From IMG/VR virus record IMGVR_UViG_2693429774_000004, positions 1-15,490 of that record: a stretch of DNA of 15,490 nucleotides; one strand, written 5' to 3'. Shown here piece by piece: positions 1-15,490 of the stretch; within the stretch, counting starts at the first letter, position 1, and each line of letters opens with the position of its first letter. The position numbers were made by a program, and so were the translations under genes. A model generated the notes under the pieces. That model made no database searches, was not told the origin of the DNA, and saw only the letters and a list, made by a program, of their open reading frames with translations. The DNA comes from a virus (Duplodnaviria > Heunggongvirae > Uroviricota > Caudoviricetes).

Positions 1-22
1 AAAAACGAGTATTTTTAGTCAT
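1..22 (-). CDS. 5' end of an unidentified ORF running off the left edge (begins MTKNTRF)
   Basis: ATG at 22..20 on the minus strand, preceded by AGGTAAACAGG about 8 nt upstream, lying just downstream of the exo stop. Only 7 codons are in the window. The sequence past the exo stop diverges from what I recall of lambda. Confidence 0.25.
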
Positions 23-89
23 CCTGTTTACCTCTTTCTCAGGAAGTTTAGTCTCCAGGATTCCCGGGGCGGTTCATCGTGAGGATGCG

Positions 90-905
90 TCATCGCCATT
101 GCTCCCCAAATACAAAACCAATTTCAGCCAGTGCCTCGTCCATTTTTTCGATGAACTCCGGCACCATCTCGTCAAAATTCGCCATGTACTTTTCATCCCG
201 CTCAACCACGACATAATGCAGGCCTTCACGCTTCATACGCGGGTCATAGTTGGCAAAGTACCAGGCATCTTTTCGCGTCACCCACATGCTGTACTGCACC
301 TGGGCCATGTAAGCTGACTTTATGGCCTCGAAACCACCGAGCCGGAACTTCATGAAATCCCGGGAGGTAAACGGGCATTTCAGTTCAAGGCCATTGCCGT
401 CACTGCATAAACCATCGGGAGAGCAGGCGGTGCGCATACTTTCGTCGCGATAGATGATCGGGGATTCAATAACATTTACGCCGGAAGTGAACTCAAACAG
501 GGTTCTGGCGTCGTTCTCGTACTGTTTTCCCCAGGCCAGTGCTTTAGCGTTAACTTCCGGAGCCACACCGGTGCAAACCTCGGCAAGCAGGGTGTGGAAG
601 TAGGACATTTTCATGTCAGGCCACTTCTTTCCTGAGCGGGGCTTTGCTATCACGTTGTGAACTTCTGAAGCGGTGATGACGCCGAGCCGTAATTTGTGCC
701 ACGCATCATCCCCCTGTTCGACAGCTCTCACGTCGATCCCGGTAACGATATCCGTCTGATGCGTGAACGTGATGGACGTAACCACCGCGACATGTGTGTA
801 CTGTTCCGCTGGGCCTGCCAGGACAACTTCTGGTCCGGTAACGTGCTGAGTCCGGCCAAACTCCGCGACAAGTGGACCCAGCTCGAAATCAACCGGAACA
901 AGCAA
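90..905 (-). CDS. exoD: Lambda exonuclease (Exo/RedX, YqaJ family) homolog with a replaced N-terminus; possibly a pseudogene
   Basis: ORF-track protein residues about 55-271 ([31 protein letters not shown]...FVFGEQWR) match lambda Exo as I remember it almost residue for residue. The first ~54 codons have no Exo counterpart and are read antisense through the O remnant. Confidence 0.8.
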
Positions 906-980
906 CAGGCTGGCGTGACAGTCGGCAAACCAAAACTCGACCTGACAAACACTGACTGGATTTACGGGGTGGATCTATGA
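696..980 (+). pseudogene. C-terminal remnant of lambda-type replication initiator O; N-terminal DNA-binding domain and ori region absent
   Basis: Translation ends ...[44 protein letters not shown], the C-terminus of lambda O as I recall it. The stop overlaps the P start (ATGA at 977-980). O homology begins only near 745, directly abutting the exo homology on the other strand. Confidence 0.7.
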
Positions 981-1678
981 AAAACATCGCCGCACAGATG
1001 GTTAACTTTGACCGTGAGCAGATGCGTCGGATCGCCAACAACATGCCGGAACAGTACGACGAAAAGCCACAGGTACAGCAGGTAGCGCAGATCATCAACG
1101 GTGTGTTCAGCCAGTTACTGGCAACTTTCCCGGCGAGCCTGGCTAACCGTGACCAGAATGAACTGAACGAAATCCGCCGCCAGTGGGTGCTGGCTTTCCG
1201 GGAAAACGGGATCACCACAATGGAACAGGTTAACGCTGGAATGCGCGTAGCCCGTCGGCAGAATCGACCATTCCTGCCATCACCCGGGCAGTTTGTCGCC
1301 TGGTGCCGGGAAGAAGCATCCGTTACCGCCGGGCTGCCAAACGCCAGCGAGCTGGTTGATATGGTTTACGAGTATTGCCGGAAGCGCGGGCTGTATCCGG
1401 ATGCAGAGTCTTATCCGTGGAAATCAAACGCGCACTACTGGCTGGTTACCAACCTGTATCAGAACATGCGGGCCAATGCGTTGACTGACGCGGAATTACG
1501 GCGCAAGGCTGCCGATGAACTGTCCTGTATGACCGCACGAATTAACCGTGGTGAGGCTATACCTGAACCAGTAAAACAACTTCCTGTCATGGGCGGTAGA
1601 CCTCTAAATCGTGCACAGGCTCTGGCGAAGATCGCAGAAATCAAAGCTAAGTTTGGGCTGAAAGGAGCAAGGGTATGA
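977..1678 (+). CDS. Replication protein P (DnaB helicase loader), lambda gpP homolog, full length
   Basis: 233-aa ORF MKNIAAQMVNFDREQMRRIANNMPEQYDEKPQVQQVAQIINGVF...AKIAEIKAKFGLKGARV is near-identical to lambda P from memory. Start overlaps the O stop; stop overlaps the ren start. Confidence 0.9.
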   Translation: MKNIAAQMVNFDREQMRRIANNMPEQYDEKPQVQQVAQIINGVFSQLLATFPASLANRDQNELNEIRRQWVLAFRENGITTMEQVNAGMRVARRQNRPFLPSPGQFVAWCREEASVTAGLPNASELVDMVYEYCRKRGLYPDAESYPWKSNAHYWLVTNLYQNMRANALTDAELRRKAADELSCMTARINRGEAIPEPVKQLPVMGGRPLNRAQALAKIAEIKAKFGLKGARV

Positions 1679-1977
1679 CGGGCAAAGAGTCAATTATTCA
1701 TTACCTGGGGACTCATAAGAAATTCTGTGCGCAGGACGTTGCCGCGGTAACAGGCGCAACGGTAACCAGCATAAATCAGGCTGCGGCTAAAATGGCGCGG
1801 GCAGGAATCCTAGTCGTTGATGGTAAGGTCTGGCGAACGGTGTATTATCGGTTCGCTACCAGAGAAGAATGGGAAGGAAAGGTGAGCACGAATTTGATTT
1901 TTAAGGAGTGTCGCCAGAGTGCCGCGATGAAACGGGTATTGAGGGTATATAAAAGAACATCAATGGGTACACAATGA
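1675..1977 (+). CDS. Ren-like protein (lambda Ren homolog) with altered C-terminus
   Basis: MTGKESIIHYLGTH...VWRTVYYRFATREEWEGKVSTNLIFKECRQSAAMKRVL matches lambda Ren. The last ~12 residues differ because the AT-rich island starts near 1945. ATG overlaps the P stop (ATGA). Confidence 0.8.
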   Translation: MTGKESIIHYLGTHKKFCAQDVAAVTGATVTSINQAAAKMARAGILVVDGKVWRTVYYRFATREEWEGKVSTNLIFKECRQSAAMKRVLRVYKRTSMGTQ

Positions 1978-2044
1978 TGAAACAGGTGAGTTGAGTTCAA
2001 ACTGTAGTACAATTCTCTCCAGTTTGAACAGGAAAGAATATGCT

Positions 2045-2377
2045 ATGAACCCTTATATTTATCTTGGTGGTGCAATACTTGCAGAGGTCATTGGTACAAC
2101 CTTAATGAAGTTTTCAGAAGGTTTTACACGGTTATGGCCATCTGTTGGTACAATTATTTGTTATTGTGCATCATTCTGGTTATTAGCTCAGACGCTGGCT
2201 TATATTCCTACAGGGATTGCTTATGCTATCTGGTCAGGAGTCGGTATTGTCCTGATTAGTTTACTGTCATGGGGATTTTTCGGCCAACGGCTGGACCTGC
2301 CAGCCATTATAGGTATGATGTTGATTTGTGCCGGTGTGTTGGTTATTAATTTATTGTCACGAAGCACACCACATTAA
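2045..2377 (+). CDS. emrE: Small multidrug resistance (SMR) efflux transporter EmrE
   Basis: Internal Met of the 1991..2377 ORF gives the 110-aa protein MNPYIYLGGAILAEVIGTTLMKFSEGFTRLWPSVGT...LLSRSTPH, recognised as EmrE, with four hydrophobic helices and the conserved membrane-embedded Glu in helix 1. Confidence 0.95.
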   Translation: MNPYIYLGGAILAEVIGTTLMKFSEGFTRLWPSVGTIICYCASFWLLAQTLAYIPTGIAYAIWSGVGIVLISLLSWGFFGQRLDLPAIIGMMLICAGVLVINLLSRSTPH

Positions 2378-2406
2378 AATAATTTGTTTCTAAACGACTA
2401 AAATAT

Positions 2407-2450
2407 GGAGGCTCTTATATTTATATGAGCCTCGTTTTATGCTTTTTGTT
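2407..2450 (+). terminator. Probable intrinsic terminator downstream of emrE
   Basis: GGAGGCTC (2407-2414) pairs with GAGCCTC (2427-2433) around a 12-nt AT loop, followed by GTTTTATGCTTTTTGTT. Confidence 0.5.
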
Positions 2451-2631
2451 AATGTCTTTATTTTTTATGTATTCTTTTGTGCTTTCAAGATTATGGCGTA
2501 AGAAAATTGCAATACGATTATTGTTGTATATTCAAGATAATGTGACCTTAATTGTCTTTTTAAATAAAAATTAAACAAAAATTATATCCCACCACTAAGG
2601 TTTATAAAAGCATACGTTAGCAGGTGTCACC

Positions 2632-4158
2632 ATGAAAAAAGCCATAGCATATATGCGATTTTCATCACCAGGTCAGATGTCTGGTGACTCATTAAACCGA
2701 CAGAGAAGACTTATTGCTGAATGGTTAAAGGTAAATAGTGATTATTATCTTGATACCATAACATATGAAGATTTAGGATTAAGTGCATTCAAAGGAAAGC
2801 ATGCACAATCAGGAGCTTTTTCGGAATTTTTAGATGCTATAGAGCATGGTTATATATTGCCAGGAACTACATTGTTAGTTGAAAGTCTGGACAGACTTTC
2901 AAGAGAAAAAGTCGGTGAAGCGATTGAACGTCTGAAATTGATTTTGAATCACGGTATTGATGTTATAACTCTTTGCGACAATACAGTCTATAATATTGAC
3001 TCTTTGAATGAGCCATATTCATTAATAAAAGCCATACTTATAGCACAAAGGGCAAATGAAGAAAGCGAGATAAAGTCAAGTCGGGTTAAATTATCATGGA
3101 AGAAAAAACGGCAGGATGCAATGGAATCAGGTACGATTATGACGGCGTCTTGTCCGAGATGGCTCTCCTTAGATGACAAAAGAACGGCTTTTGTTCCAGA
3201 CCCCGACAGGGTGAAAACTATTGAGCTAATTTTTAAACTCAGGATGGAAAGGCGCTCATTGAATGCAATAGCCAAGTATTTAAATGATCATGCTGTAAAG
3301 AATTTCTCAGGAAAAGAAAGTGCATGGGGACCTTCTGTAATTGAAAAATTATTAGCGAATAAAGCTCTGATAGGTATATGCGTACCTTCATATCGTGCAA
3401 GAGGGAAAGGGATAAGTGAAATCGCTGGCTATTATCCCAGAGTTATATCAGATGATTTGTTTTACGCTGTACAGGAAATTCGGTTGGCACCTTTTGGTAT
3501 TAGCAATAGTAGCAAGAATCCTATGCTAATAAATCTACTTCGAACAGTTATGAAGTGTGAGGCTTGTGGTAATACCATGATTGTTCATGCGGTATCTGGA
3601 AGTTTGCATGGCTATTATGTTTGTCCGATGAGAAGATTACATCGATGTGACAGGCCATCAATAAAAAGAGATTTGGTTGATTATAATATCATTAATGAAT
3701 TGCTTTTTAATTGTAGCAAAATTCAACCAGTTGAAAACAAGAAAGATGCTAATGAAACTTTAGAGTTAAAAATTATTGAGCTTCAGATGAAAATTAATAA
3801 TTTAATCGTTGCATTGTCTGTCGCGCCTGAAGTTACCGCTATAGCAGAGAAAATAAGACTATTAGATAAGGAATTACGAAGGGCTTCGGTATCATTGAAA
3901 ACTTTGAAGAGTAAAGGTGTAAATTCATTCAGTGATTTTTATGCTATTGACTTAACCAGTAAAAATGGACGAGAGTTATGCCGTACACTTGCCTATAAAA
4001 CATTCGAAAAAATCATAATTAATACGGATAATAAAACCTGTGATATCTATTTTATGAATGGCATTGTTTTTAAACACTATCCTTTAATGAAAGTAATATC
4101 CGCCCAGCAGGCGATAAGTGCTCTCAAATATATGGTTGATGGTGAGATTTATTTCTAA
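2632..4158 (+). CDS. ybcK: Large serine recombinase (resolvase/invertase-type catalytic domain, recombinase domain, zinc ribbon, C-terminal coiled coil)
   Basis: 508-aa ORF. N-terminus AIAYMRFSSPGQ fits the serine-recombinase active-site motif (Y-x-R-x-S). Cys cluster CEACGNTM...YYVCPMRRLHRCD resembles the zinc ribbon of large serine recombinases. Lys/Glu-rich C-terminal segment. Low-GC coding. Confidence 0.88.
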   Translation: MKKAIAYMRFSSPGQMSGDSLNRQRRLIAEWLKVNSDYYLDTITYEDLGLSAFKGKHAQSGAFSEFLDAIEHGYILPGTTLLVESLDRLSREKVGEAIERLKLILNHGIDVITLCDNTVYNIDSLNEPYSLIKAILIAQRANEESEIKSSRVKLSWKKKRQDAMESGTIMTASCPRWLSLDDKRTAFVPDPDRVKTIELIFKLRMERRSLNAIAKYLNDHAVKNFSGKESAWGPSVIEKLLANKALIGICVPSYRARGKGISEIAGYYPRVISDDLFYAVQEIRLAPFGISNSSKNPMLINLLRTVMKCEACGNTMIVHAVSGSLHGYYVCPMRRLHRCDRPSIKRDLVDYNIINELLFNCSKIQPVENKKDANETLELKIIELQMKINNLIVALSVAPEVTAIAEKIRLLDKELRRASVSLKTLKSKGVNSFSDFYAIDLTSKNGRELCRTLAYKTFEKIIINTDNKTCDIYFMNGIVFKHYPLMKVISAQQAISALKYMVDGEIYF

Positions 4159-4356
4159 ATAATGATCTCGGATTTTAAGTTATGCTATGGTGATAAAGTG
4201 CAAGACAGAATTAATTATCTTTGACGAAACTTAATGGGTAATTACTTTGTTTGCTCCCACAAGCGAGTTTTGTACGGCTGTATTGGGGTAGTAAATGAGC
4301 TATACAATCTTAATCATTTGTTAGGTGAGAACTCTTGGTCGCAGATTCAAATACTG

Positions 4357-4406
4357 AAAATACGTGACAAATTATTATGAGCAAAATGGTGTATGTCACG
4401 TATTTT
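4357..4406. promoter_or_regulatory. Perfect 13-bp inverted repeat (AAAATACGTGACA / TGTCACGTATTTT) with 24-bp spacer in the ybcK-ybcL intergenic region
   Basis: Arms at 4357-4369 and 4394-4406 are exact reverse complements. Sits about 220 bp upstream of the ybcL start. Candidate operator or RNA stem-loop. Confidence 0.4.
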
Positions 4407-4622
4407 GAATGGTAGGTTAAAAAATAACACCGACTTTCGTAGGTATTACTAATAATAAAGCAGAGTTTTTAGATAGTATCAATGTGCTTTGTGTATATTG
4501 TGGCAAATAATTGGGTTGGGGGTACAATTGTGATTGCTTTTGCATAAACATTGCGCCTTTATGCATAATGAGATAAAGGAATATCAAATAAAATAACGAT
4601 AGGTCATAACAAAGAGGTTTTT

Positions 4623-5174
4623 ATGAAAACACTTATCGTTTCAACTGTATTGGCATTCATAACATTTTCTGCGCAGGCTGCAGCATTTCAGGTCACTAGT
4701 AATGAAATAAAAACAGGAGAGCAACTTACAACGTCTCATGTCTTTTCTGGATTTGGGTGTGAAGGTGGTAATACATCGCCCTCATTAACCTGGTCTGGTG
4801 TTCCTGAAGGTACCAAAAGCTTTGCCGTAACTGTATATGATCCAGATGCACCTACAGGCAGTGGTTGGTGGCATTGGACTGTTGTTAATATTCCAGCAAC
4901 AATAACATATTTGCCCGTTGATGCAGGGAGACGTGATGGAACAAAACTGCCGACTGGTGCTGTTCAAGGCCGAAATGATTTTGGCTATGCTGGGTTTGGT
5001 GGCGCATGTCCTCCTAAAGGAGATAAACCACATCATTACCAGTTTAAAGTATGGGCTCTAAAAACTGAAAAGATTCCTGTAGATTCTAACTCCAGCGGAG
5101 CGTTAGTTGGTTATATGCTTAATGCTAATAAAATCGCAACCGCTGAGATAACACCAGTTTATGAGATAAAGTAG
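4623..5174 (+). CDS. ybcL: Periplasmic PEBP/RKIP-family protein YbcL with signal peptide
   Basis: 183-aa ORF with N-terminal signal peptide (MKTLIVSTVLAFITFSAQAAA) and PEBP-like core (VTVYDPDAPTGSGWWHWTVVNIP...HHYQFKVWAL). Preceded by GAGG. Confidence 0.9.
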   Translation: MKTLIVSTVLAFITFSAQAAAFQVTSNEIKTGEQLTTSHVFSGFGCEGGNTSPSLTWSGVPEGTKSFAVTVYDPDAPTGSGWWHWTVVNIPATITYLPVDAGRRDGTKLPTGAVQGRNDFGYAGFGGACPPKGDKPHHYQFKVWALKTEKIPVDSNSSGALVGYMLNANKIATAEITPVYEIK

Positions 5175-5183
5175 GGTGAGAGT

Positions 5184-5981
5184 ATGCTGGCAAGAGGTAA
5201 GACTAACTTAAAGATCGAAGAAATACGGATGCATAAACATCATGAGATTCATAGGGTTAAGCCTCTTATGCCAGCTTTGTGTCGTATCCGTCAGGGAAAG
5301 AAAGTTATCAATTGGGAGACGCATACTTTAACTGTTGATAATAATCAAATAATATTATTTCCTTGTGGTTATGAATTTTATATTGAGAATTATCCTGAAG
5401 CAGGGCTTTATCTTGCAGAAATGCTTTACTTACCCATTGATTTAATTGAGAGTTTCCAAAAACTTTATACGGTAACTGATCAAATACGTAACAAAACAAG
5501 TTTCTTTTTACCTCAGAATCCTGAGTTAATATATTGTTGGGAGCAACTAAAAACATCTGTTTCCCGAGGCTTCTCAACTAAAATTCAGGAGCACTTAGCA
5601 ATGGGCGTTCTACTTTCGTTAGGAGTGAATCATGTTAATCATTTACTTTTATCATATAGTAAACAATCATTGATAAGTCGTTGTTATAACCTGCTGCTAT
5701 CCGAACCCGGCACAAAATGGACAGCAAACAAGGTTGCTCGATATCTCTACATTTCTGTTTCTACATTACATCGCCGTCTAGCAAGCGAGGGGGTAAGTTT
5801 CCAAAGTATACTGGACGATGTGAGGTTAAATAATGCGTTGTCTGCTATACAAACGACGGTAAAACCTATAAGCGAGATTGCCAGAGAAAATGGTTATAAG
5901 TGTCCTTCTCGTTTTACTGAAAGATTTCATAATCGTTTTAATATAACACCAAGAGAGATAAGAAAAGCTTCCAGAGAGTAA
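5184..5981 (+). CDS. ybcM: AraC/XylS-family transcriptional regulator
   Basis: 265-aa ORF with a C-terminal AraC-type double helix-turn-helix ([21 protein letters not shown]...[32 protein letters not shown]). Low-GC coding. Confidence 0.85.
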
Positions 5982-6045
5982 AAGTGTTTTAAGAAGGAGC
6001 AATTCTATCGATTTTGATTTTGGGAAATCAACACGGCATAATTAT

Positions 6046-6074
6046 GTCACCGGAGCCTGAACAACTCCGGTGAC
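6046..6074 (+). terminator. Stem-loop at the right boundary of the AT-rich island (possible weak terminator of ybcM)
   Basis: GTCACCGGAG (6046-6055) pairs perfectly with CTCCGGTGAC (6065-6074) around a 9-nt loop, followed by TTCTGCG, only a weak U-tract. Confidence 0.3.
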
Positions 6075-6097
6075 TTCTGCGCTAAACGGGGACGTTT

Positions 6098-6199
6098 ATG
6101 CGCACATACAATCCAAACTCTCTTCTCCCTTCACAGATGCAGAAATGCACCTGCAATTCTTTGCATCTAGCGTTTGACCTCTGCGGAGGTGAAGCGTGA
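6098..6199 (+). CDS. ylcH: Small 33-codon ORF upstream of and overlapping the ybcN start (possibly ylcH)
   Basis: ATG at 6098 to TGA at 6197-6199 ([33 protein letters not shown]). Stop overlaps the ybcN GTG start as GTGA. The name is from memory of a similarly sized K-12 ORF; coding status is uncertain. Confidence 0.3.
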
Positions 6200-6651
6200 A
6201 CCTCTCACAAGACGGCATCAAATTACATCGCGGCAACTTCACCGCTATCGGTCGGCAGATCCAGCCTTATCTGGAGGAGGGCAAATGCTTTCGCATGGTG
6301 CTTAAACCGTGGCGTGAGAAACGCAGTCTTTCCCAGAATGCACTCAGCCACATGTGGTACAGCGAAATCAGTGAATACCTCATCAGCAGGGGTAAAACGT
6401 TCGCCACTCCAGCTTGGGTAAAAGATGCTCTCAAACACACATATCTCGGTTATGAAACCAAAGACCTGGTTGATGTCGTAACCGGTGATATCACCACTAT
6501 CCAGTCGTTACGCCATACCTCCGATCTTGATACCGGAGAGATGTATGTCTTCCTGTGTAAGGTTGAAGCCTGGGCGGTGAATATTGGCTGCCACCTGACT
6601 ATTCCGCAGAGCTGCGAGTTCCAGCTGCTCCGCGACAAGCAGGAGGCGTAA
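6196..6651 (+). CDS. ybcN: NinB/Orf-family recombination protein (lambda NinB homolog)
   Basis: 151-aa ORF from GTG at 6196 with GGAGG 6 nt upstream. Central [16 protein letters not shown] region resembles the lambda NinB core. Stop overlaps the ninE ATG (TAATG). Confidence 0.85.
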
Positions 6652-6821
6652 TGGCTACACCGCTTATTCGTGTCATGAACGGACACATCTACAGAGTATC
6701 AAATCGTCGTAAGCGTAAGCCTGAGCTGAAGCCATCCGAAATACCAACACTGCTCGGATATACCGCTAGCCTGGTTGATAAAAAATGGTTGCGACTGGCA
6801 GCAAGGAGGAATCATGGCTGA
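6651..6821 (+). CDS. ninE: NinE-family small protein
   Basis: 56-codon ORF translated by hand ([56 protein letters not shown]). Coupled to ybcN upstream and overlaps ybcO downstream. Too short for the ORF track. Confidence 0.7.
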   Translation: MATPLIRVMNGHIYRVSNRRKRKPELKPSEIPTLLGYTASLVDKKWLRLAARRNHG

Positions 6822-7104
6822 TTTGAGAAAAGCAGCGCGTGGTCGGGAATGCCAGGTAAGAATCCCTGGCGTATGTAATGGCAATTCTGAAACGTCTGTA
6901 CTGGCACATATCCGGCTGGCTGGATTGTGCGGTACCGGTATCAAACCGCCAGACCTGATTGCCACCATTGCATGTTCTGCCTGCCACGACGAAATCGACC
7001 GCCGCACACATTTTGTCGATGCTGCATATGCAAAAGAATGCGCGCTGGAAGGTATGGCGAGAACACAGGTTATCTGGCTGAAAGAGGGGGTTATTAAGGC
7101 GTGA
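6814..7104 (+). CDS. ybcO: YbcO (DUF1364) putative zinc-dependent nuclease
   Basis: 96-aa protein from the internal Met of the 6775..7104 ORF ([29 protein letters not shown]...), with AGGAGGA 5-11 nt upstream. Contains paired Cys motifs. Stop overlaps the rusA GTG start. Confidence 0.85.
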
Positions 7105-7463
7105 ATACCTACAGTATCACATTACCCTGGCCTCCGAGCAATAATCGCTATTACCGCCATAATCGCGGGCGCACGCACGTCAGTGCAGAGGGGCAGGCAT
7201 ACCGCGATAACGTCGCCCGAATCATTAAAAGCGCAATGCTGGATATCGGCCTGGCTATGCCTGTGAAAATCCGCATTGAGTGCCACATGCCGGATCGCCG
7301 TCGCCGTGACCTGGATAATCTGCAAAAAGCCGCTTTTGACGCACTCACTAAAGCAGGTTTCTGGCTGGATGATGCTCAGGTCGTTGATTACCGCGTTGTG
7401 AAGATGCCTGTTACCAAAGGTGGGAGGCTGGAACTGACCATCACCGAAATGGGGAATGAATGA
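7101..7463 (+). CDS. rusA: Holliday junction resolvase RusA
   Basis: 120-aa protein [37 protein letters not shown]...[10 protein letters not shown], recognised as RusA. GTG start. Confidence 0.92.
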
Positions 7464-7600
7464 TGTTTGAGTTTAATATAGCAGAACTTCTTCGCCACCG
7501 CTGGGGGCGTCTGCGCTTATATCGTTTCCCCGGTTCTGTTTTGACCGATTACCGAATACTGAAGAATTACGCCAAAACCCTGACAGGAGCAGGAGTATGA
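7460..7600 (+). CDS. ylcG: Small nin-region protein (YlcG-like)
   Basis: 46-codon ORF ([46 protein letters not shown]). ATG overlaps the rusA stop (ATGATG). Hand translated. Confidence 0.55.
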
Positions 7601-7685
7601 AGTCAGAGATAACAATCAACTAATACTGTTTTATTGATTTTTGCTTGTAATTGGCGTTCTGGTCTGATTTTTGTGGAGTAAGTTG

Positions 7686-8069
7686 ATGCGTGATATTCAG
7701 ATGGTTCTTGAGCGTTGGGGAGCGTGGGCGGCTAATAATCATGAAGATGTGACCTGGTCGTCCATTGCCGCCGGTTTTAAGGGATTAATTCCTTCAAAAG
7801 TAAAATCTCGCCCGCAATGTTGTGACGATGACGCGATGATCATTTGCGGGTGCATGGCCCGTCTGAAAAAGAACAACAGCGATTTGCACGATTTATTAGT
7901 AGATTATTATGTAGTTGGTATGACATTCATGTCACTGGCAGGTAAGCATTGCTGCTCTGATGGTTATATCGGGAAAAGGTTACAGAAGGCTGAGGGCATA
8001 ATTGAAGGGATGTTAATGGCATTAGATATCCGGTTAGAGATGGATATCGTTGTTAATAACTCTAATTAA
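7686..8069 (+). CDS. quuD: Late-gene antiterminator Q
   Basis: 127-aa protein from the ATG at 7686 ([26 protein letters not shown]...). Cys-rich segment [16 protein letters not shown]...KHCCSDGY is consistent with a Q-type zinc-binding antiterminator. Sits at the nin/late boundary. The ORF track begins at an upstream TTG (7671). Confidence 0.85.
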
Positions 8070-8094
8070 TACGCCAATTATTTACTAAAAGTTA

Positions 8095-8262
8095 TTAAAA
8101 ATGGGGCGTTGAAACGCCCCCAAAAATAAAGGGTAATATATAACAGAAGGTTTGTATAGTTAGAAGCAAGGTTGTGCTTCTAAAGGAAGTGGCTTGAGGG
8201 AGCCACTTATATGTTGGGGAGGCAAAGCCTCCCACAACATATCTTTTAGTAATCAAATTAGA
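8095..8262 (-). ncRNA. ipeX: Candidate small RNA from the nmpC 3' region (possibly IpeX-like), ending at a minus-strand intrinsic terminator
   Basis: On the minus strand the 8103-8120 hairpin is followed by ATTTTTAATAAC, a canonical terminator about 140-160 nt past the nmpC stop. I recall an sRNA named IpeX mapping beside nmpC in DLP12, but I cannot confirm its exact coordinates or strand from memory. Confidence 0.3.
8103..8247 (+). promoter_or_regulatory. Cluster of four stem-loops between quuD and nmpC: candidate late-promoter leader/qut region with terminator
   Basis: Stems at 8103-8120 (GGGGCGTT/AACGCCCC), 8162-8181 (AGAAGCA/TGCTTCT), 8187-8208 (AAGTGGCT/AGCCACTT) and 8211-8240 (ATGTTGGGGAGGC/GCCTCCCACAACAT, one bulge). 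The last is followed by ATCTTTTAG on the plus strand. Confidence 0.4.
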
Positions 8263-9340
8263 ACTGGTAAACCATACCTACAGCAACGATATCATCGGTA
8301 GCAACGCCAGATGCTTTCGTGAAATCGCTCTTATCAATCAGGTTGATTTTGTAGTCAACAAAAGTGGACATATTTTTGTTGAAGTAATAGGTTGCACCTA
8401 CATCAACATATTCAACCAGGTCCTGATCACCCCAAACACCCAAGTCTTTTCCTTTAGAATGCAGGTAAGCAACGGATGGACGCAGGCCGAAGTCGAACTG
8501 ATATTGTGCAACAGCTTCGAAGTTTTGTGCTTTGTTGGCAATATGGTTATTACCAAAAACAGTCATGTTCTGGGTTTCAGAATAGGTGGTGGCCAGATAG
8601 ATGTTGTTCGCATCATATTTCAGACCAGCTGCCCATACTTCAGCATTTTGACCAGAAGCATTCAGACCGTTGTTACCGTAGATAACCTGATTATTAGTGC
8701 GATCAGATTTAGCATAGGTTGCACCTACACCGAATCCTTCATACTCATAAGTAGTGGAGAAACCGAAACCATCACCATTAGCTTCAGTTACGTCAGTGCG
8801 GTCATTTTTACCCTGATACTGAGCAGCAAAGTTCAGACCATCAACCAGACCAAAGAAGTCGTTGTTACGATAAGTTGCAACACCAGTGGTGCGACCAGTC
8901 ATGAACACATCTGTTTGAGTCCAAGTGTCACCACCGAATTCTGGCAGGACGTCAGTCCACGCACCGATGTCGTATGCTACACCGTAGTTACGGCCGTAAT
9001 CGATGGAGCCGTAGTCACCGAATTTCAGGCCAGCGAAGGCAAGACGGGTTTTATCTTTGGAGGAACCTTGAGATTCAGCGCGGTTGCCTTTGAATTCATA
9101 TTCCCACTGACCGAAACCAGTCAGTTGATCGTTGATTTGGGTTTCACCTTTGAAGCCAAGACGGGCATAAGTAGTATCACCATCATCTGCATCATTAGAG
9201 GAGAAGTAGTGCTTAGCATTAACTTTCCCGTACAGATCCAGCTTGTTACTGTCTTTATTATAAATTTCAGCTGCCTGAGCAGACATCGCCATCAGTACTG
9301 ATGCAGCTACAGCAGAAATTGCCACTGTTAATTTTTTCAT
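8258..9340 (-). CDS. nmpC: Outer membrane general porin NmpC (OmpD/OmpC family), apparently intact
   Basis: 360-aa ORF with signal peptide [23 protein letters not shown], porin-typical Gly/Tyr/Asp-rich beta-strand composition and the conserved C-terminal motif VGMVYQF. Confidence 0.92.
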
Positions 9341-9928
9341 CGTGAGCCCTTTTTTTTGAACTATTATTAAAAAATGATGTCACTGCGCGATAAATATTCA
9401 TCTAATCAATGTGATTATTTCAAGATGTAAGTTTTAGTTTCTCATTTAATTTGTGAAGTAGATCTCTATTTTTATCTGAACTTTTTCTATCGAAACCTAT
9501 TTATGGCTCTTATTTGAACAAAAATAAACCTATTAGCTAATTTATATTAATGGCTGTTATTTATGGGGGGTCTATAATTCGATGGTTTAATTTAAATTAA
9601 CTAAAAATAACGCCGGAAATTATTTATTGGTTATTTGTTGAGGTTTTCTTATGTATTTGTGGTGGTGTTTTGAACACTCGGTAGCATTCTCATAAATATC
9701 ATTCAGTGGTTTACGTACGTAAAAAATTGGTTATGCTGTTAAGAGTGGTTACTTCGTCACACAGCTTAAACCCGCCGTCGAGCTGGTTTTTCCATTTTTT
9801 GAGTCTCGATATTAGCTGATAACTCAATACCTGAGTTATTCACTGACTCCGAGTCTGTTACGTTTCTGCTTTTTTGCGATACGTTGTATTCCCTCAATTT
9901 ACACCCGCTTTGTCTGCGAGGTGGGGTT

Positions 9929-10144
9929 ATGAAATCCATGGATAAGTTAACAACGGGTGTCGCCTATGGCACCTCAGCAGGTAGTGCCGGTTACTGGTTT
10001 TTACAGCTGCTCGATAAAGTCACGCCCTCACAGTGGGCAGCAATAGGTGTGCTGGGTAGCCTGGTATTTGGCCTGCTGACGTACCTGACAAACCTTTATT
10101 TCAAGATTAAAGAAGATAAGCGCAAGGCTGCGAGAGGTGAATAA
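9929..10144 (+). CDS. essD: Class II holin / pinholin (phage 21 S-like) with dual-start motif
   Basis: 71-aa protein [71 protein letters not shown]. Met1 and Met4 give the classic antiholin/holin dual start; two TMDs. The ORF track starts at an upstream in-frame Met. Stop overlaps the rrrD ATG. Confidence 0.9.
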
Positions 10145-10641
10145 TGCCTCCATCATTACGAAAAGCCGTTGCTGCTGCTATTGGTGGCGGAGCAATTGCT
10201 ATAGCATCAGTGTTAATCACTGGCCCAAGTGGTAACGATGGTCTGGAAGGTGTCAGCTACATACCATACAAAGATATTGTTGGTGTATGGACCGTATGTC
10301 ACGGGCATACAGGAAAAGACATCATGCTCGGTAAAACGTATACCAAAGCAGAATGCAAAGCACTCTTGAATAAAGACCTTGCCACTGTCGCCAGACAAAT
10401 TAACCCATACATCGAAGTCGATATACCGGAAACAACGCGCGGCGCTCTTTACTCATTCGTTTACAACGTGGGTGCTGGCAATTTCAGAACATCGACGCTT
10501 CTTCGCAAAATAAACCAGGGCGATATCAAAGGCGCATGTGATCAGTTACGTCGCTGGACATATGCTGGCGGTAAGCAATGGAAAGGTCTCATGACTCGTC
10601 GTGAGATTGAGCGTGAAATCTGTTTGTGGGGTCAGCAATGA
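10144..10641 (+). CDS. rrrD: SAR (signal-anchor-release) endolysin, lysozyme of the phage 21 R type
   Basis: 165-aa ORF. N-terminal Gly/Ala-rich weakly hydrophobic segment ([20 protein letters not shown]) typical of SAR domains, followed by a lysozyme catalytic region. Confidence 0.92.
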
Positions 10642-11099
10642 ACAGAGTAACCGCGATTATCTCCGCTCTGGTTATCTGCATCATCGTCTGCCTGTCATGG
10701 GCTGTTAATCATTACCGTGATAACGCCATTACCTATAAAGCCCAGCGCGACAAAAATGCCAAAGAACTGAAGCTGGCGAACGCGGCAATTACTGACATGC
10801 AGATGCGTCAGCGTGATGTTGCTGCGCTCGATGCAAAATACACGAAGGAGTTAGCTGATGCGAAAGCTGAAAATGATGCTCTGCGTGATGATGTTGCCGC
10901 TGGTCGTCGTCGGTTGCACATCAAAGCAGTCTGTCAGTCAGTGCGTGAAGCCACCACCGCCTCCGGCGTGGATAATGCAGCCTCCCCCCGACTGGCAGAC
11001 ACCGCTGAACAGGATTATTTCACCCTCAGAGAGAGGCTGATCACTATGCAAAAACAACTGGAAGGAACCCAGAAGTATATTAATGAGCAGTGCAGATAG
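10638..11099 (+). CDS. rzpD: Spanin inner-membrane subunit Rz (i-spanin)
   Basis: 153-aa protein from the ATG at 10638 ([26 protein letters not shown]...), with an N-terminal TMD and coiled-coil periplasmic region. Start overlaps the rrrD stop. Confidence 0.9.
10858..11040 (+). CDS. rzoD: Spanin outer-membrane lipoprotein subunit Rz1 (o-spanin), embedded in the +1 frame of rzpD
   Basis: 60-aa [27 protein letters not shown]... with a lipobox (VVGC) and proline-rich mature region ([15 protein letters not shown]), lying entirely inside rzpD. Confidence 0.85.
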
Positions 11100-11130
11100 A
11101 GCTGCCCATATCGATGGGCAACTCATGCAA

Positions 11131-11424
11131 TTATTGTGAGCAATACACACGCGCTTCCAGCGGAGTATAAATGCCTAAAGTAATAAAACCGAGCAATCCA
11201 TTTACGAATGTTTGCTGGGTTTCTGTTTTAACAACATTTTCTGCGCCGCCACAAATTTTGGCTGCATCAACAGTTTTCTCCTGTCCAATTCCCGAAACGA
11301 AGAAGTGATGGGTGATGGTTTCCTTTGGTGTTACTGCTGTCGGTTTGTTTCCAACAGTAAACGTCTGTTGAGCACATCCTGTAATAAGCATTGCCAGAGC
11401 GGCAGAAAACAACATTTTTTTCAT
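11131..11424 (-). CDS. borD: Bor-family outer-membrane lipoprotein (serum-resistance protein homolog)
   Basis: 97-aa protein from the internal Met (MKKMLFSAALAMLITGCAQQTFTV...EARVYCSQ) with lipobox LITGC; near-identical to lambda Bor from memory. The ORF track starts 16 codons upstream. Confidence 0.9.
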   Translation of the reverse strand: MKKMLFSAALAMLITGCAQQTFTVGNKPTAVTPKETITHHFFVSGIGQEKTVDAAKICGGAENVVKTETQQTFVNGLLGFITLGIYTPLEARVYCSQ

Positions 11425-11786
11425 CTTATTATCCTGCATTGTTAAAAACGGCAGAATCCTATGTGACAACAATTAAACGATAGTTAAATGGATTGATGAA
11501 AATTAAAACTATATAGGTGTACGCTCAGACTATTGGAGGAAGTTGGGGACACTCAGAATCCTGTGGAATGAAATAAACCGGTCTATCCGTCTATTACCCT
11601 TTTAGCTGCGCTGTATCGTCGCCGTATTCCCGCATTAACCATGACCGTAGCCCGACGGGGAATTCCTTCTGCGTGAGTGTGCGGGAATAATCAAAAACGA
11701 TGCACACCGGGTTTTACTGTGCTGACAGACGCAGGGTTACCCTCATAGTCGCTTTTCCGGTGCGATGGTGGAAGAAACCGGGATGT

Positions 11787-11981
11787 TCATCCATCATCAC
11801 TTTGGATTGATGTATATGCTCTCTTTTCTGACGTTAGTCTCCGACGGCAGGCTTCAATGACCCAGGCTGAGAAATTCCCAGACCCTTTTTGCTCAAGAGC
11901 GATGTTAATTTGTTCAATCATTTGGTTAGGAAAGCGGATGTTGCGGGTTGTTGTTCTGCGGGTTTTGTTCTTCGTTGACAT
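11787..11981 (-). CDS. ylcI: Small ribbon-helix-helix-like protein near the prophage right end (YlcI-like)
   Basis: 64-aa ORF MSTKNKTRRTTTRNIRFPNQMIEQINIALEQKGSGNFSAWVIEACRRRL... Basic N-terminus, then a strand-helix-helix pattern compatible with an RHH fold. The flanking DNA matches the lambda right end as I recall it. Confidence 0.5.
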   Translation of the reverse strand: MSTKNKTRRTTTRNIRFPNQMIEQINIALEQKGSGNFSAWVIEACRRRLTSEKRAYTSIQSDDG

Positions 11982-12180
11982 GAGGTTGCCCCGTATTCAG
12001 TGTCGCTGATTTGTATTGTCTGAAGTTGTTTTTACGTTAAGTTGATGCAGATCAATTAATACGATACCTGCGTCATAATTGATTATTTGACGTGGTTTGA
12101 TGGCGTAGATGCACGTTGTGACATATAGATGATAATTATTATCATTTTGCGGGTCCTTTCCGGCGATCCGACAGGTTACG

Positions 12181-12192
12181 GGGCGGCGACCT
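12181..12192 (+). other. cosN: lambda-type 12-nt cohesive-end sequence
   Basis: GGGCGGCGACCT, preceded by ...CCGACAGGTTACG and followed by CGCGGGTTTTCGCTATTTATGAAAATTTTCCGG, i.e. the junction of lambda right and left ends as I recall them. Confidence 0.85.
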
Positions 12193-12369
12193 CGCGGGTT
12201 TTCGCTATTTATGAAAATTTTCCGGTTTAAGGTGTTTCCGTTCTTCTTCGTCGTAACTTAATGTTTTTATTTAAAATACCCCCTGAAAAGAAAGGAAACG
12301 ACAGGTGCTGAAAACGAGCTTTTGGGCCTCTGTCGTTTCCTTTCTCTGTTTTTGGCCGTGGAATGAACA
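12193..12369 (+). other. cosB region (terminase small-subunit binding sites and IHF site) between cosN and the nohD start
   Basis: Position and near-identity to the first ~180 nt of the lambda left end. Individual R3/R2/R1 sites not mapped. Confidence 0.6.
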
Positions 12370-12511
12370 ATGGAAGTCAACAAAAAGCAGCTGGCTGACA
12401 TTTTCGGTGCGAGTATCCGTACCATTCAGAACTGGCAGGAACAGGGAATGCCCGTTCTGCGAGGCGGTGGCAAGGGTAATGAGGTGCTTTATGACTCTGC
12501 CGCCGTCATAA
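12305..12511 (+). CDS. ybcW: 68-codon ORF overlapping cosB and the 5' end of nohD (YbcW-like); doubtful coding status
   Basis: ORF present in the track. I recall a 68-aa ybcW annotated at this position in K-12, but it lies in a different frame across cosB and nohD and the same DNA in lambda is not considered coding. Confidence 0.15.
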   Translation: MLKTSFWASVVSFLCFWPWNEQWKSTKSSWLTFSVRVSVPFRTGRNRECPFCEAVARVMRCFMTLPPS

Positions 12512-12915
12512 AATGGTATGCCGAAAGGGATGCTGAAATTGAGAACGAAAAGCTGCGCCGGGAAGTTGAAGAACTGCGGCAGGCCAGCGAGACAGATCTC
12601 CAGCCAGGGACTATTGAGTACGAACGCCATCGACTTACGCGTGCGCAGGCCGACGCACAGGAGCTGAAAAATGCCAGAGACTCCGCTGAAGTGGTGGAAA
12701 CCGCATTCTGTACTTTCGTGCTGTCGCGGATCGCAGGTGAAATTGCCAGTATTCTCGACGGGATCCCCCTGTCGGTGCAGCGGCGTTTTCCGGAACTGGA
12801 AAACCGACATGTTGATTTCCTGAAACGGGATATCATCAAAGCCATGAACAAAGCAGCCGCGCTGGATGAACTGATACCGGGGTTGCTGAGTGAATATATC
12901 GAACAGTCAGGTTAA
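12370..12915 (+). CDS. nohD: Terminase small subunit Nu1 homolog (cos-binding), full length
   Basis: 181-aa ORF MEVNKKQLADIFGASIRTIQNWQEQGMPVLRGGGKGNEVLYDSAAVIKWYAERDAEIENEKLRREVEELRQ...GLLSEYIEQSG, essentially lambda Nu1, with a winged-HTH N-terminus. Confidence 0.93.
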   Translation: MEVNKKQLADIFGASIRTIQNWQEQGMPVLRGGGKGNEVLYDSAAVIKWYAERDAEIENEKLRREVEELRQASETDLQPGTIEYERHRLTRAQADAQELKNARDSAEVVETAFCTFVLSRIAGEIASILDGIPLSVQRRFPELENRHVDFLKRDIIKAMNKAAALDELIPGLLSEYIEQSG

Positions 12916-13135
12916 CAGGCTGCGGCATTTTGTCCGCGCCGGGCTTCGCTCACTGTTCAGGCCGGAGCCACAGACCGCCGTTGAATGGGCGGATGCTAAT
13001 TACTATCTCCCGAAAGAATCCGCATACCAGGAAGGGCGCTGGGAAACACTGCCCTTTCAGCGGGCCATCATGAATGCGATGGGCAGCGACTACATCCGTG
13101 AGGTGAATGTGGTGAAGTCTGCCCGTGTCGGTTAA
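12890..13135 (+). pseudogene. N-terminal 81-codon stub of terminase large subunit A
   Basis: [81 protein letters not shown] matches the lambda gpA N-terminus, then stops at 13133-13135 where homology ends. Start overlaps the nohD 3' end as in lambda. Confidence 0.85.
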
Positions 13136-13185
13136 CCGCGCTGACAGACAATACGCAGGGGGCAGCAGGTCTTGAGTTATACGAG

Positions 13186-14088
13186 GTGTATAACAACGGA
13201 TATCCAACAGCGTATGGAAATATCATTCACCTGAAAGGGATGACAGCCGTTGGCGAAGGTGAGTTACTCATCGGCTGGAGTGGTACAAGCGGTGCTCATG
13301 CTCCGGCATTTATTCGTTCACGACGGGATACGACCGACGCAAACTGGTCGCCGTGGGCGCAGCTTTACACCTCGGCTCATCCTCCTGCAGAGTTTTATCC
13401 AGTCGGTGCACCAATCCCGTGGCCATCAGATACCGTTCCGTCTGGTTATGCCCTGATGCAGGGGCAGACTTTTGACAAATCTGCATACCCGAAACTTGCA
13501 GTTGCTTATCCGTCAGGCGTGATCCCTGATATGCGTGGCTGGACGATTAAGGGCAAGCCCGCCAGTGGTCGGGCCGTATTATCTCAGGAACAGGACGGCA
13601 TTAAATCGCACACCCACAGCGCCAGCGCATCCAGTACGGATTTGGGGACGAAAACCACATCGTCGTTTGATTACGGAACCAAATCCACGAATAACACCGG
13701 GGCGCATACCCATAGTATTAGCGGGACCGCAAATAGTGCCGGCGCGCACCAACACAAGAGTTCCGGTGCATTTGGTGGCACGAACACGAGCATTTTCCCT
13801 AATGGTTATACCGCGATTTCAAATCCAAGCGCGGGGATTATGAGCACAACAAGCGGTAGTGGCCAGACTCGTAATGCAGGGAAGACATCATCAGATGGTG
13901 CTCATACCCACTCGCTGTCCGGCACTGCTGCAATCGCAGGCGCACATGCACATACTGTCGGTATTGGTGCTCATACGCACTCCGTTGCGATTGGCTCACA
14001 TGGACACACCATCACCGTTAACGCTGCGGGTAACGCGGAAAACACCGTCAAAAACATCGCATTTAACTATATTGTGAGGCTTGCATAA
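13186..14088 (+). pseudogene. C-terminal fragment of a side tail fibre gene (lambda Stf / T4 gp37-like distal domain)
   Basis: 300-aa ORF ending ...[14 protein letters not shown] like lambda Stf, with seven His-x-His motifs. No N-terminal tail-attachment region. The frame is open from about 13117; the track start at 13186 is GTG. Confidence 0.85.
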
Positions 14089-14669
14089 TGGCATTCAGAA
14101 TGAGTGAACAAGCACGGACCATAAAAATTTATAATCTGCTGGCCGGAACTAATGAATTTATTGGTGAAGGTGACGCATATATTCCGCCTCATACAGGTCT
14201 GCCAGCAAACAGTACCGATATTGCACCACCAGATATTCCGGCAGGCTTCGTGGCTGTTTTCAACAGTGATGAGGCATCGTGGCATCTCGTTGAAGACCAT
14301 CGGGGTAAAACGGTTTATGACGTGGCTTCCGGCGACGCGTTATTTATTTCTGAACTCGGTCCGTTACCGGAAAATGTTACCTGGTTGTCGCCGGGAGGGG
14401 AATATCAGAAGTGGAACGGCACAGCCTGGGTGAAGGATACGGAAGCAGAAAAACTGTTCCGGATCCGGGAGGCAGAAGAAACAAAAAACAGCCTGATGCA
14501 GGTAGCCAGTGAGCATATTGCGCCACTTCAGGATGCTGTAGATCTGGAAATCGCAACGGAGGAAGAAACCTTGTTGCTGGAAGCCTGGAAAAAGTATCGG
14601 GTGTTGCTGAACCGTGTTGATACATTAACTGCACCGGATATTGAATGGCCAGTAGCACCTATAGGGTAA
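14088..14669 (+). CDS. tfaD: Tail fibre assembly protein Tfa
   Basis: 193-aa [57 protein letters not shown]... near-identical to lambda Tfa from memory. ATG overlaps the stf stop (TAATG). Confidence 0.9.
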
Positions 14670-14754
14670 ATTCGTAATGATTACCTAAATACGTTATTCT
14701 TTTGTTAAAAAAGTGATTTTGCTATAGGTAGGGAGTATGTTCTTGGATTAAGAA

Positions 14755-14786
14755 TAAAAAATCGCCATGAAAGAGCTTCATGGCGA
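14755..14786 (-). terminator. Perfect 10-bp stem-loop with adjacent A6/T6 tract, terminator-like in minus orientation
   Basis: TCGCCATGAA (14762-14771) pairs with TTCATGGCGA (14777-14786) around a 5-nt loop. AAAAAA lies immediately upstream on the plus strand, which is a U-tract after the hairpin on the minus strand. Confidence 0.3.
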
Positions 14787-15418
14787 GTACATAAACGTAC
14801 AAAATGTGATGAAAGTAGAGTGGCGTAAGCCACTATATTAAGATATGACAATAGCGAAGAAAAGTAAATAACATTTCATGGACGTTTAATTGTTAATTAT
14901 AAAAACTAGAGTGCCCGATATTGTTTATCTTGCTTTAAAATAATGTACTCAAACCAAATTTTTGAGCTAAAAGCTCAAATAATATAAATGCAATAATAAT
15001 GTTTAATAAGACAATTAGCTTGCTTTGTATTTTCATTTCGGAATACTGTTAAGTAACTTTGATGACCCTAACAATAGATCGGAATTTTCTTAGAGTCAAT
15101 GGTCACTGTTTTTGCTTGCAAAGCAAATGTTTTGGTGGTTATAAGTTGTCTTAATATAGTCACGCATGCAACTTGTTCCATGCGGAGATTAAAGATTGGA
15201 ATATAACGCGAAGATGGAATTAAATTACATTTGCAATAATCAATTTATTATTACTCAATAATTACCGATATTATTATTGTAAATTAATCATTAGAGTGCA
15301 AAAAGAAATGTAACGGCAAAATAAGAGGACGATAGCTGAGAAAAAAGCGTGCTTTCCCAATCTGGGGCAAATCACGTCTGAATGACACCTGAAAACAGGT
15401 GGTAGCCTCAAGAAGGCT

Positions 15419-15490
15419 GGTGATGCTGCCAACTTACTGATTTAGTGTATGATGGTGTTTTTGAGGTGCTCCAGTGGCTTCTGTTTCTAT
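15419..15490 (+). mobile_element. IS1 left end (terminal inverted repeat and start of insA), truncated by the window edge
   Basis: GGTGATGCTGCCAACTTACTGATTTAGTGTATGATGGTGTTTTTGAGGTGCTCCAGTGGCTTCTGTTTCTAT matches the IS1 terminus as I remember it. insA appears to start at the GTG at 15474 (V/M-A-S-V-S-I...). Confidence 0.85.

Follow-up and report, generated by a model that had tools for sequence, protein, structure and literature searches.

By its translated sequence, the porin gene under study is an intact allele of NmpC/Lc, the lambdoid-prophage porin that is often annotated OmpD or OmpC, and it occupies a self-contained, reverse-oriented cassette that separates Q from the late promoter pR'. 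The explanation that best accounts for the data, to which we give a probability of roughly 0.8, is that of an autonomous, intact prophage porin whose cassette diverges from pR'. According to this model, the porin would be expressed in the lysogen from its own promoter and under host control, which would comprise the regulators reported for the K-12 promoter (CRP, OmpR, IHF, MprA and RyhB) together with its responses to pH and temperature. The late promoter would fire rightward from near 9744 into essD-rrrD-rzpD and, since this start points away from nmpC, Q-modified polymerase would never cross the porin gene. All positions refer to the window, that is, the whole stretch of 15,490 nucleotides that was analysed (IMG/VR record IMGVR_UViG_2693429774_000004, positions 1 to 15,490), and the features on which the argument is built are collected in Table 1.

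Table 1. Features of the porin cassette and its neighbourhood, in window coordinates
Feature	Position	Strand	Description and basis
quuD, Q-type late antiterminator	7686-8069	+	127 aa; Phage_antitermQ, E 1e-53
Porin cassette as a mosaic unit	about 8046-9708	-	1.66 kb; terminators, CDS, promoter and 28%-GC upstream region; pairwise BLAST breakpoints
Intrinsic terminator of the porin transcript	8093-8120	-	GGGGCGTTTCAACGCCCC followed by ATTTTT; terminator scan
Four strong hairpins	8095-8244	both	located between the stop codons of Q and porin; form the cassette's 3' end
Porin gene (nmpC/lc allele)	8258-9340	-	360 codons + TAA; mature protein of 337 aa
Signal peptide	9272-9340	-	23 codons, ends AQA, cleaved before AEIYNK; mature PDB chains start at query residue 24
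SigmaE-like motif	9357-9384	+	TGAACTA (9357-9363), 16 nt, TCACT (9380-9384); read from sequence; implied start near 9390
Candidate nmpC promoter	9394-9423	-	-35 TTGAAA (9423-9418), 18-nt spacer, -10 GAATAT (9399-9394); relaxed hexamer scan; inferred start near G9388
Putative CRP site	9449-9469	-	exact match to the site annotated in PA-2 lc (J02580 1363-1383)
Late promoter module pR'	9709-9791	+	homology to H-19B/VT1-Sakai and PhiR40_1
pR' -35	9710-9715	+	TTTACG; overlapped by the 14-bp palindrome TTTACGTACGTAAA
pR' -10	9732-9737	+	TATGCT; 16-nt spacer from the -35
Conserved box	9740-9752	+	TAAGAGTGGTTAC
pR' predicted start	A9744	+	homology to a PR' start mapped by dRNA-seq
Terminator-like hairpin	9771-9791	+	CCCGC/GCTGG with a T5 run
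Lysis cassette essD (holin), rrrD (lysozyme), rzpD (spanin)	9929-11099	+	Pfam Phage_holin_2_1, Phage_lysozyme and Phage_lysis; RefSeq annotation
essD	9929-10144	+	

A reverse-oriented cassette in a defective prophage

The 2.6 kb around the porin (window 7600-10200) are 100% identical to a RefSeq E. coli chromosome, where the order is replication genes, ren, emrE, ybcK, ybcL, ybcM, ybcN, ninE, ybcO, rusA, ylcG, quuD, porin (reverse), essD, rrrD, rzpD, iss/bor, ylcI and nohD, with truncated terminase and tail genes downstream of nohD. The host element is a defective DLP12-like lambdoid prophage, and nmpC is a lysogenic-conversion ('moron') gene carried by it. The porin sits in the slot characteristic of Lc and NmpC, on the opposite strand between quuD (Q) and the S-R-Rz lysis genes, and essD-rrrD-rzpD are the first genes of the late operon. 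QuuD matches the solved Q21 weakly and is 81% identical in amino acids to the Q protein of H-19B, from which it diverges after the LEMD residues (about 117-120). As the earlier note had claimed, there is no insertion sequence in or near nmpC: in the identical RefSeq record none was found between the replication genes and an IS1, and this nearest element has its left end at window 15419, 6 kb from nmpC. An Rfam scan gave no matches in the Q-to-essD region.

The limits of the cassette are given by the points at which homology to other phages is lost and regained. On the left, homology of Q to H-19B, PhiR40_1 and 1H12 stops at 8018-8045, at the LEMD codons, a breakpoint that is also seen in PhiR40_1 and 1H12; on the right, homology picks up again at 9709 with pR'. 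The two flanks of the porin gene, 8046-8257 and 9341-9708 (the latter with 28% GC), do not occur without the porin in the phage collection. The ends of the cassette were searched for target-site duplications and for inverted repeats, and nothing beyond short repeats at chance level was found. Related phages also have other reverse-oriented cargo at the Q-to-pR' junction. In PhiR40_1, Q of the same type and the same pR' module enclose an unrelated reverse ORF of 148 aa; in 1H12, Q is followed by a lipocalin gene in reverse orientation; and in SfII the pR' module, which in that phage abuts the holin gene, has reverse ORFs immediately upstream. 1H12 was considered as a full example of this slot and set aside as partial support, since the conserved box is absent: its Q gene is 89% identical in DNA, and only the palindrome and the -10 are kept. 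The link between Q and promoter is thus not uniform across the phage family.

The hairpins and terminators at 8093-8244 are the porin's own 3' signals. The hairpin cluster has a minimum free energy of -61.9 kcal/mol, with z-scores of -7.1 on the + strand and -6.6 on the - strand, and is bracketed by a 14-nt inverted repeat (8082-8095 and 8239-8252). Transcription could also reach it from the left. During lytic growth of intact relatives, N-antiterminated transcripts from the early promoter pR might continue past Q and produce antisense RNA over nmpC, a prospect that we consider possible but doubtful. Q and the nin-region genes before it, all on the + strand, point straight at the 3' end of the porin, and on this strand the cluster would be a weak barrier, as a short U-rich stretch (AUAUCUUUU) follows its last hairpin and none of the others. 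In phage lambda, moreover, N-modified polymerase reads through the terminators beyond Q. However, the N gene, the nut site and pR are all absent from the window, and the prophage, with its truncated terminase and tail genes, is defective. Antisense transcription of this kind would not be Q-driven, and it is compatible with an autonomous porin in the lysogenic state.

Probable expression of nmpC and the candidate divergent promoters

A consensus promoter and terminator scan of 7400-10200 returned the porin terminator only, with no promoter in either intergenic region, and a relaxed scan provided the candidate nmpC promoter of Table 1, with a score of 8/12. In K-12, PnmpC has been placed within -199 to -1 relative to the start codon, and its start has been mapped to a G (PMC11677980). 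The proximal promoter region (130 bp) is about 97-100% identical in K-12, PA-2 and PhiR70_1, although the coding sequences of the alleles differ by 10%. The centre of the putative CRP site would be about 71 nt upstream of the candidate nmpC start.

Would an intact nmpC be silent all the same? A quiescent gene, making no contribution to the outer membrane of the source strain under normal conditions, seems unlikely to us. Certainly, the upstream region has 28% GC, which is typical of H-NS-bound DNA, and the title of a 1998 paper by Prilipov et al. reportedly calls nmpC a quiescent porin gene. PnmpC is also reported to be repressed by OmpR, IHF and MprA (PMC11677980). Nevertheless, the same promoter is active in K-12, where it is reportedly activated by CRP and is the source of the only detectable IS5 fusion mRNA (PMC11677980), and a shift to 37 C raises nmpC mRNA in that strain 16.5-fold (PMC8544407). 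Likewise, the lysogen of strain LF82 transcribes the copy in prophage Perceval at a level 10-fold above that of the prophage background (PMC9928086), and excision of an insertion sequence from nmpC restored its expression and altered cefotaxime/beta-lactam phenotypes (2026 bioRxiv preprint). Because expression is documented for these relatives, that is, for Perceval, the K-12 promoter and the IS-excised gene, the intact nmpC is likely to be expressed in the source strain as well, and the suggestion of the earlier note that the strain may express a prophage-encoded porin is plausible in the light of the Perceval lysogen and the active K-12 promoter. If expressed, an extra porin can affect the antibiotic permeability and the phage and colicin sensitivity of the carrier strain. 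On superinfection exclusion by PA-2 Lc, a literature search gave nothing usable.

The region upstream of nmpC may contain a further promoter in the opposite direction. A K-12 fragment drives a lysis-operon reporter, and the operon is reportedly controlled by the DLP12 Q protein and RpoE (PMC7918800). This fragment corresponds to window 9268-10052, the forward primer matching 9268-9287, in the signal-peptide codons of the porin, and the reverse primer lying inside essD; its label, '-121 to +650', places +1 near 9389, which the sigmaE-like motif of Table 1 fits. We infer from this a second rightward promoter of the lysis cassette, outside the porin CDS and with a start near 9390. The motif and the candidate nmpC promoter would stand back-to-back (starts near 9390 on the + strand and at G9388 on the - strand), the recognition hexamers of each being located in the leader of the other. 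It is conceivable, if rather improbable, that envelope stress moves polymerase from the porin promoter to that of the lysis cassette, so that porin shut-off would be coupled to the lysis genes by promoter occlusion and not by head-on collision in the CDS.

The probable late promoter lies beyond the porin

Does late transcription cross nmpC? The earlier note had placed the porin gene inside the late operon, with Q-driven transcription running head-on through it. The claim is not borne out, as the window has a single pR' homologue, located on the essD side of nmpC and pointing away from it. When the nmpC-essD intergenic region was searched against phages, the segment 9709-9791 matched several hundred records that have no porin, H-19B and VT1-Sakai included (77% identity over 83 nt, E 4e-12), and the match to PhiR40_1 was closer (85.5%, E 7e-22). 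In H-19B and VT1-Sakai the matching bases are the very 3' end of Q, and in VT1-Sakai they are annotated as 'putative late promoter', 'putative Q-utilization' and 'rho-independent terminator for pR' transcript'. For the Sakai Stx1 phage, dRNA-seq and Term-seq put the PR' start 258 nt upstream of tR' (PMC7547250). As the U-run of the second annotated terminator of VT1-Sakai ends at position 1793 of the locus (L005), the start falls on A1536, seven bases after the -10 TATCAT and equivalent to window A9744. Taken together, this homology (77-86% over 83 nt) and the annotation and dRNA-seq of another phage argue that 9709-9791 is the pR' of the prophage.

The module is kept in K-12 DLP12, PhiR70_1, PA-2, PhiR40_1 and H-19B; it scores 8/12 and was missed by the consensus promoter scan. 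Its box TAAGAGTGGTTAC and the palindrome-bearing motif GTTTACGNNCGTAAAAA have one copy each in the window, and no second copy of the box or the palindrome was found near Q or, in particular, in 8070-8257. A G-to-T change at 9784, here and in PA-2, weakens the hairpin that follows the promoter; the leader has a minimum free energy of -8.4 kcal/mol vs -18.9 for an equally long segment of K-12 that is shifted by 14 nt. The hairpin may therefore not act as the effective tR' of the window allele.

The arrangement in which pR' would lie just downstream of Q, with Q-antiterminated polymerase transcribing nmpC antisense and coupling porin expression to late-gene activity, is in our opinion very improbable. 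It is suggested by the gene order Q(+), nmpC(-), S(+), by the fact that pR' abuts Q in lambda, H-19B and the Stx phages, and by a terminator-like hairpin located about 130 nt after Q in 1H12. However, the segment between Q and nmpC (8046-8257) consists of the porin terminators, and 8070-8257 has neither a pR' homologue nor the box; in the phage collection the terminator cluster within it occurs solely where the porin does. Reverse cargo separates Q from this module in further phages that have the Q type of the window. Genes of the late operon such as stx are downstream of the pR' start, which is not the case for nmpC: the porin cassette and pR' diverge and are roughly 290 bp apart. In this phage family, then, the porin is better described as an autonomous cassette between Q and the late promoter than as a late-operon gene like stx.

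Identity of the porin and comparison with known systems

The porin ORF has an ATG start and zero internal stops, both in the ORF list and in its translation. The statement that the gene is intact, with a complete signal peptide and a C-terminal Phe motif, agrees with the translation, the Porin_1 match and the alignment to PDB chains, and retranslation of the 360 open codons revealed no frameshift or premature stop. NmpC matches Pfam Porin_1 (PF00267) end to end (positions 1-337 of 337, E 3e-152) and passes the NCBIfam porin OmpC subfamily cut-off (514.7 bits vs 484). Residue 1 of the mature OmpC, OmpK36, PhoE and OmpF chains in the PDB corresponds to NmpC residue 24 (AEIYNKD...), and the alignments extend to the last residue. 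The loop-3 constriction motif PEFGG (LPEFGGDTW) is kept in the alignments to solved porins, and the protein ends in VYQF, the terminal Phe being typical of outer-membrane barrels. These features identify NmpC as a classical general diffusion porin of the OmpC/OmpF/PhoE type, a member of the general bacterial porin family, and its end-to-end homology to solved porins leads us to expect a trimeric 16-stranded beta-barrel with pore activity. A 280-aa ORF antisense to the gene (8459-9301, + strand) has no Pfam match and was judged to be a shadow ORF; its length was equalled by only 4 of 500 synonymous shuffles.

The window protein has 90.7% amino acid identity to each of reconstructed K-12 NmpC and PA-2 Lc. 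Residues 1-147 are identical to reconstructed K-12 NmpC, and the allele differences, with two short deletions, fall in three stretches of the C-terminal half. A reading of the gene as core chromosomal ompC, to which the RefSeq label 'ompC: porin OmpC', the PGAP gene name and the subfamily score would point, is hardly credible, given that quuD and essD flank it within a DLP12-like prophage, that it is 90.7% identical to both NmpC and Lc, and that 42 phage records, including complete lambdoid phage genomes and PA-2 lc, have this porin in the same slot.

How common is the intact gene? As the earlier note had stated, the K-12 copy is disrupted by an insertion sequence: in MG1655 the annotation gives nmpC (b0553) as a pseudogene interrupted by IS5B. 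The insertion follows codon 346, with CTAA as target, and the ORF as it stands ends within the element. At this position the window reads ACGAAA, uninterrupted. Among 5,426 complete E. coli genomes, about 2,501 carry at least 80% of nmpC in one place. Integrity was sampled on evenly spaced rows of the ranking of these genomes; in 35 of the 43 rows that cover more than half of the gene the match is full-length, in a single piece and annotated as a porin, and the remaining 8, truncated or IS-split, include named K-12 and B laboratory derivatives. The exact 360-aa protein is present on at least 1,000 contigs. The porin carriers among phages include P1-like phages, with an 82% homologue, and the record of phage 434, in which the porin is annotated with an IS5 insertion after codon 346. 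Natural E. coli isolates commonly have nmpC intact, and it is broken mainly in laboratory strains. An intact prophage nmpC/lc is therefore already known and nothing unusual; natural E. coli and lambdoid phages normally have it in this form, studies of its expression and regulation go back to the 1980s, and its presence here carries little weight as a discovery.

Full-length homology relates the window protein to OmpC, OmpF, PhoE and OmpK37 (E from about 1e-135 to 1e-115), with which it shares PEFGG and the C-terminal YQF. The loop lengths differ, with gaps at the loop-4/5 region in the alignments to OmpK37 and OmpC, and the window gene is prophage-borne. Closer relatives are found in phages. 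The lc gene of PA-2 (J02580) lies beside the lysis genes in the same slot and orientation, and has the same signal-peptide length (a 69-nt sig_peptide is annotated, that is, 23 aa) and an identical CRP-site sequence; its upstream region, with the pR' module and the G-to-T terminator variant, shows 94.9% identity. The two proteins differ around precursor residues 180-190, 215-232 and 262-267, presumed to be surface loops, and the window allele is 5 aa shorter. The complete lambdoid phage PhiR70_1 has a 100%-identical porin and the emrE-through-Rz module in the same order as the window.

K-12 DLP12 shares with the window the prophage type and the order of genes; identity on the Q side is 97.7%, and the pR' module and the proximal promoter are almost unchanged. 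Identity of the coding sequences is about 90%, the K-12 gene is split where that of the window is continuous, and K-12 has a perfect GCGGG terminator stem after pR', which the window does not. In Perceval, an inducible lambdoid prophage of the AIEC strain LF82 (OV696612), the Q-porin-S arrangement is the same and the porin is 94.7% identical; its expression as a moron in the lysogen was shown by RNA-seq (PMC9928086). Perceval is a complete phage with a different allele, whereas the window prophage is defective. Finally, the stx genes of H-19B, VT1-Sakai and 933W are, like the window porin, cargo between Q and S of a lambdoid phage, and H-19B resembles the window prophage further in its Q protein, close to QuuD, and in a homologous pR' module. 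However, stx is in the sense orientation, downstream of pR'/tR' and dependent on Q, whereas the porin is reversed, upstream of pR' and provided with what is probably its own promoter.

Candidate promoters beside the porin gene

The region upstream of the prophage porin gene nmpC carries a sigmaE-like motif and a candidate nmpC promoter (see table). The hexamers of each are set inside the leader of the other. The 130-bp promoter region is approximately 97-100% identical in K-12 and in PA-2 and PhiR70_1, two phages with a porin in the same slot; by contrast, the coding sequence is 10% different.

To the right of this region, the -35 of the late promoter pR' is overlapped by a perfect 14-bp palindrome, TTTACGTACGTAAA. 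Its counterpart in the Stx phage H-19B, TTTACGATCGTAAA, is likewise perfectly palindromic but centred elsewhere, and that of phages PhiR40_1 and 1H12 is TTTACAATCGTAAA. Q, or some other factor that acts as a dimer, may bind at this palindrome. The stem of the terminator-like hairpin reads CCCGC/GCTGG in the window and PA-2, whereas K-12 and PhiR70_1 have CCCGC/GCGGG. The predicted stability of the leader is -8.4 kcal/mol in the window versus -18.9 in K-12, the K-12 segment being offset by 14 nt. On these predictions, a weaker leader hairpin could make read-through in the direction of the lysis genes leakier.

Features of the window, by position
Feature	Position	Strand	Remarks
Four-hairpin cluster	8082-8252		Flanked by the stop codons of Q and the porin
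Antisense open frame across porin CDS	8459-9301	+	Inside a 347-codon stop-free antisense run
Candidate nmpC promoter	within 9357-9423	-	Start near 9388; back-to-back with sigmaE-like motif
SigmaE-like motif	within 9357-9423	+	Sequence motif TGAACTA, 16 nt, TCACT; start near 9390
Palindrome over pR' -35	9710-9723		
Terminator-like hairpin 3' of pR'	9771-9791		Variant base 9784
Iss/Bor lipoprotein gene	11131-11424	-	Difference from K-12 DLP12
RF02111 (IS009) match	14431-14629	+	Tail-fibre-assembly gene region
Left end of IS1 element	15419-15490		Window stops inside IS1

Hairpins and an open frame around the porin gene

Between Q and the porin, four strong hairpins follow one another (z about -7). 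A 14-nt inverted repeat (8082-8095 / 8239-8252) brackets the cluster, which therefore looks like a structured element in its own right. On the strand opposite the porin, the length of the long open frame was matched in only 4 of 500 synonymous-codon shuffles, and the frame gave no Pfam match; we read it as a shadow ORF.

The prophage and its relatives

The Rfam match in the tail-fibre-assembly region is full-length and scores 227.9 bits (gathering score, 117). Beyond the prophage remnant, the identical RefSeq genome continues with IS1, an AraC-family regulator, transposase fragments and finally ybhB-bioA. This order suggests that the DNA on the right-hand side of the prophage has undergone an IS-associated rearrangement. 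Compared (at 977-1977 of the window) with K-12 DLP12, in which IS3 interrupts renD, this prophage has kept its replication genes and an uninterrupted ren, and it lacks ybcV and ybcW.

A porin approximately 82% identical to the window protein is present in the records of P7 (AF503408), which is a P1-like phage, phi456 (OR339795) and JL22 (ON018986), two of the three records being about 100 kb; the porin family is thus cargo beyond lambdoid phages too. Related phages differ in the reverse-oriented cargo that they hold where Q adjoins the late promoter: 1H12 (L009, 505-662 and 2383-2420) carries the lipocalin Blc and has kept only the palindrome and the -10 of the pR' module, and PhiR40_1 (L007, 1090-1536) carries a 148-aa ORF without assignment.
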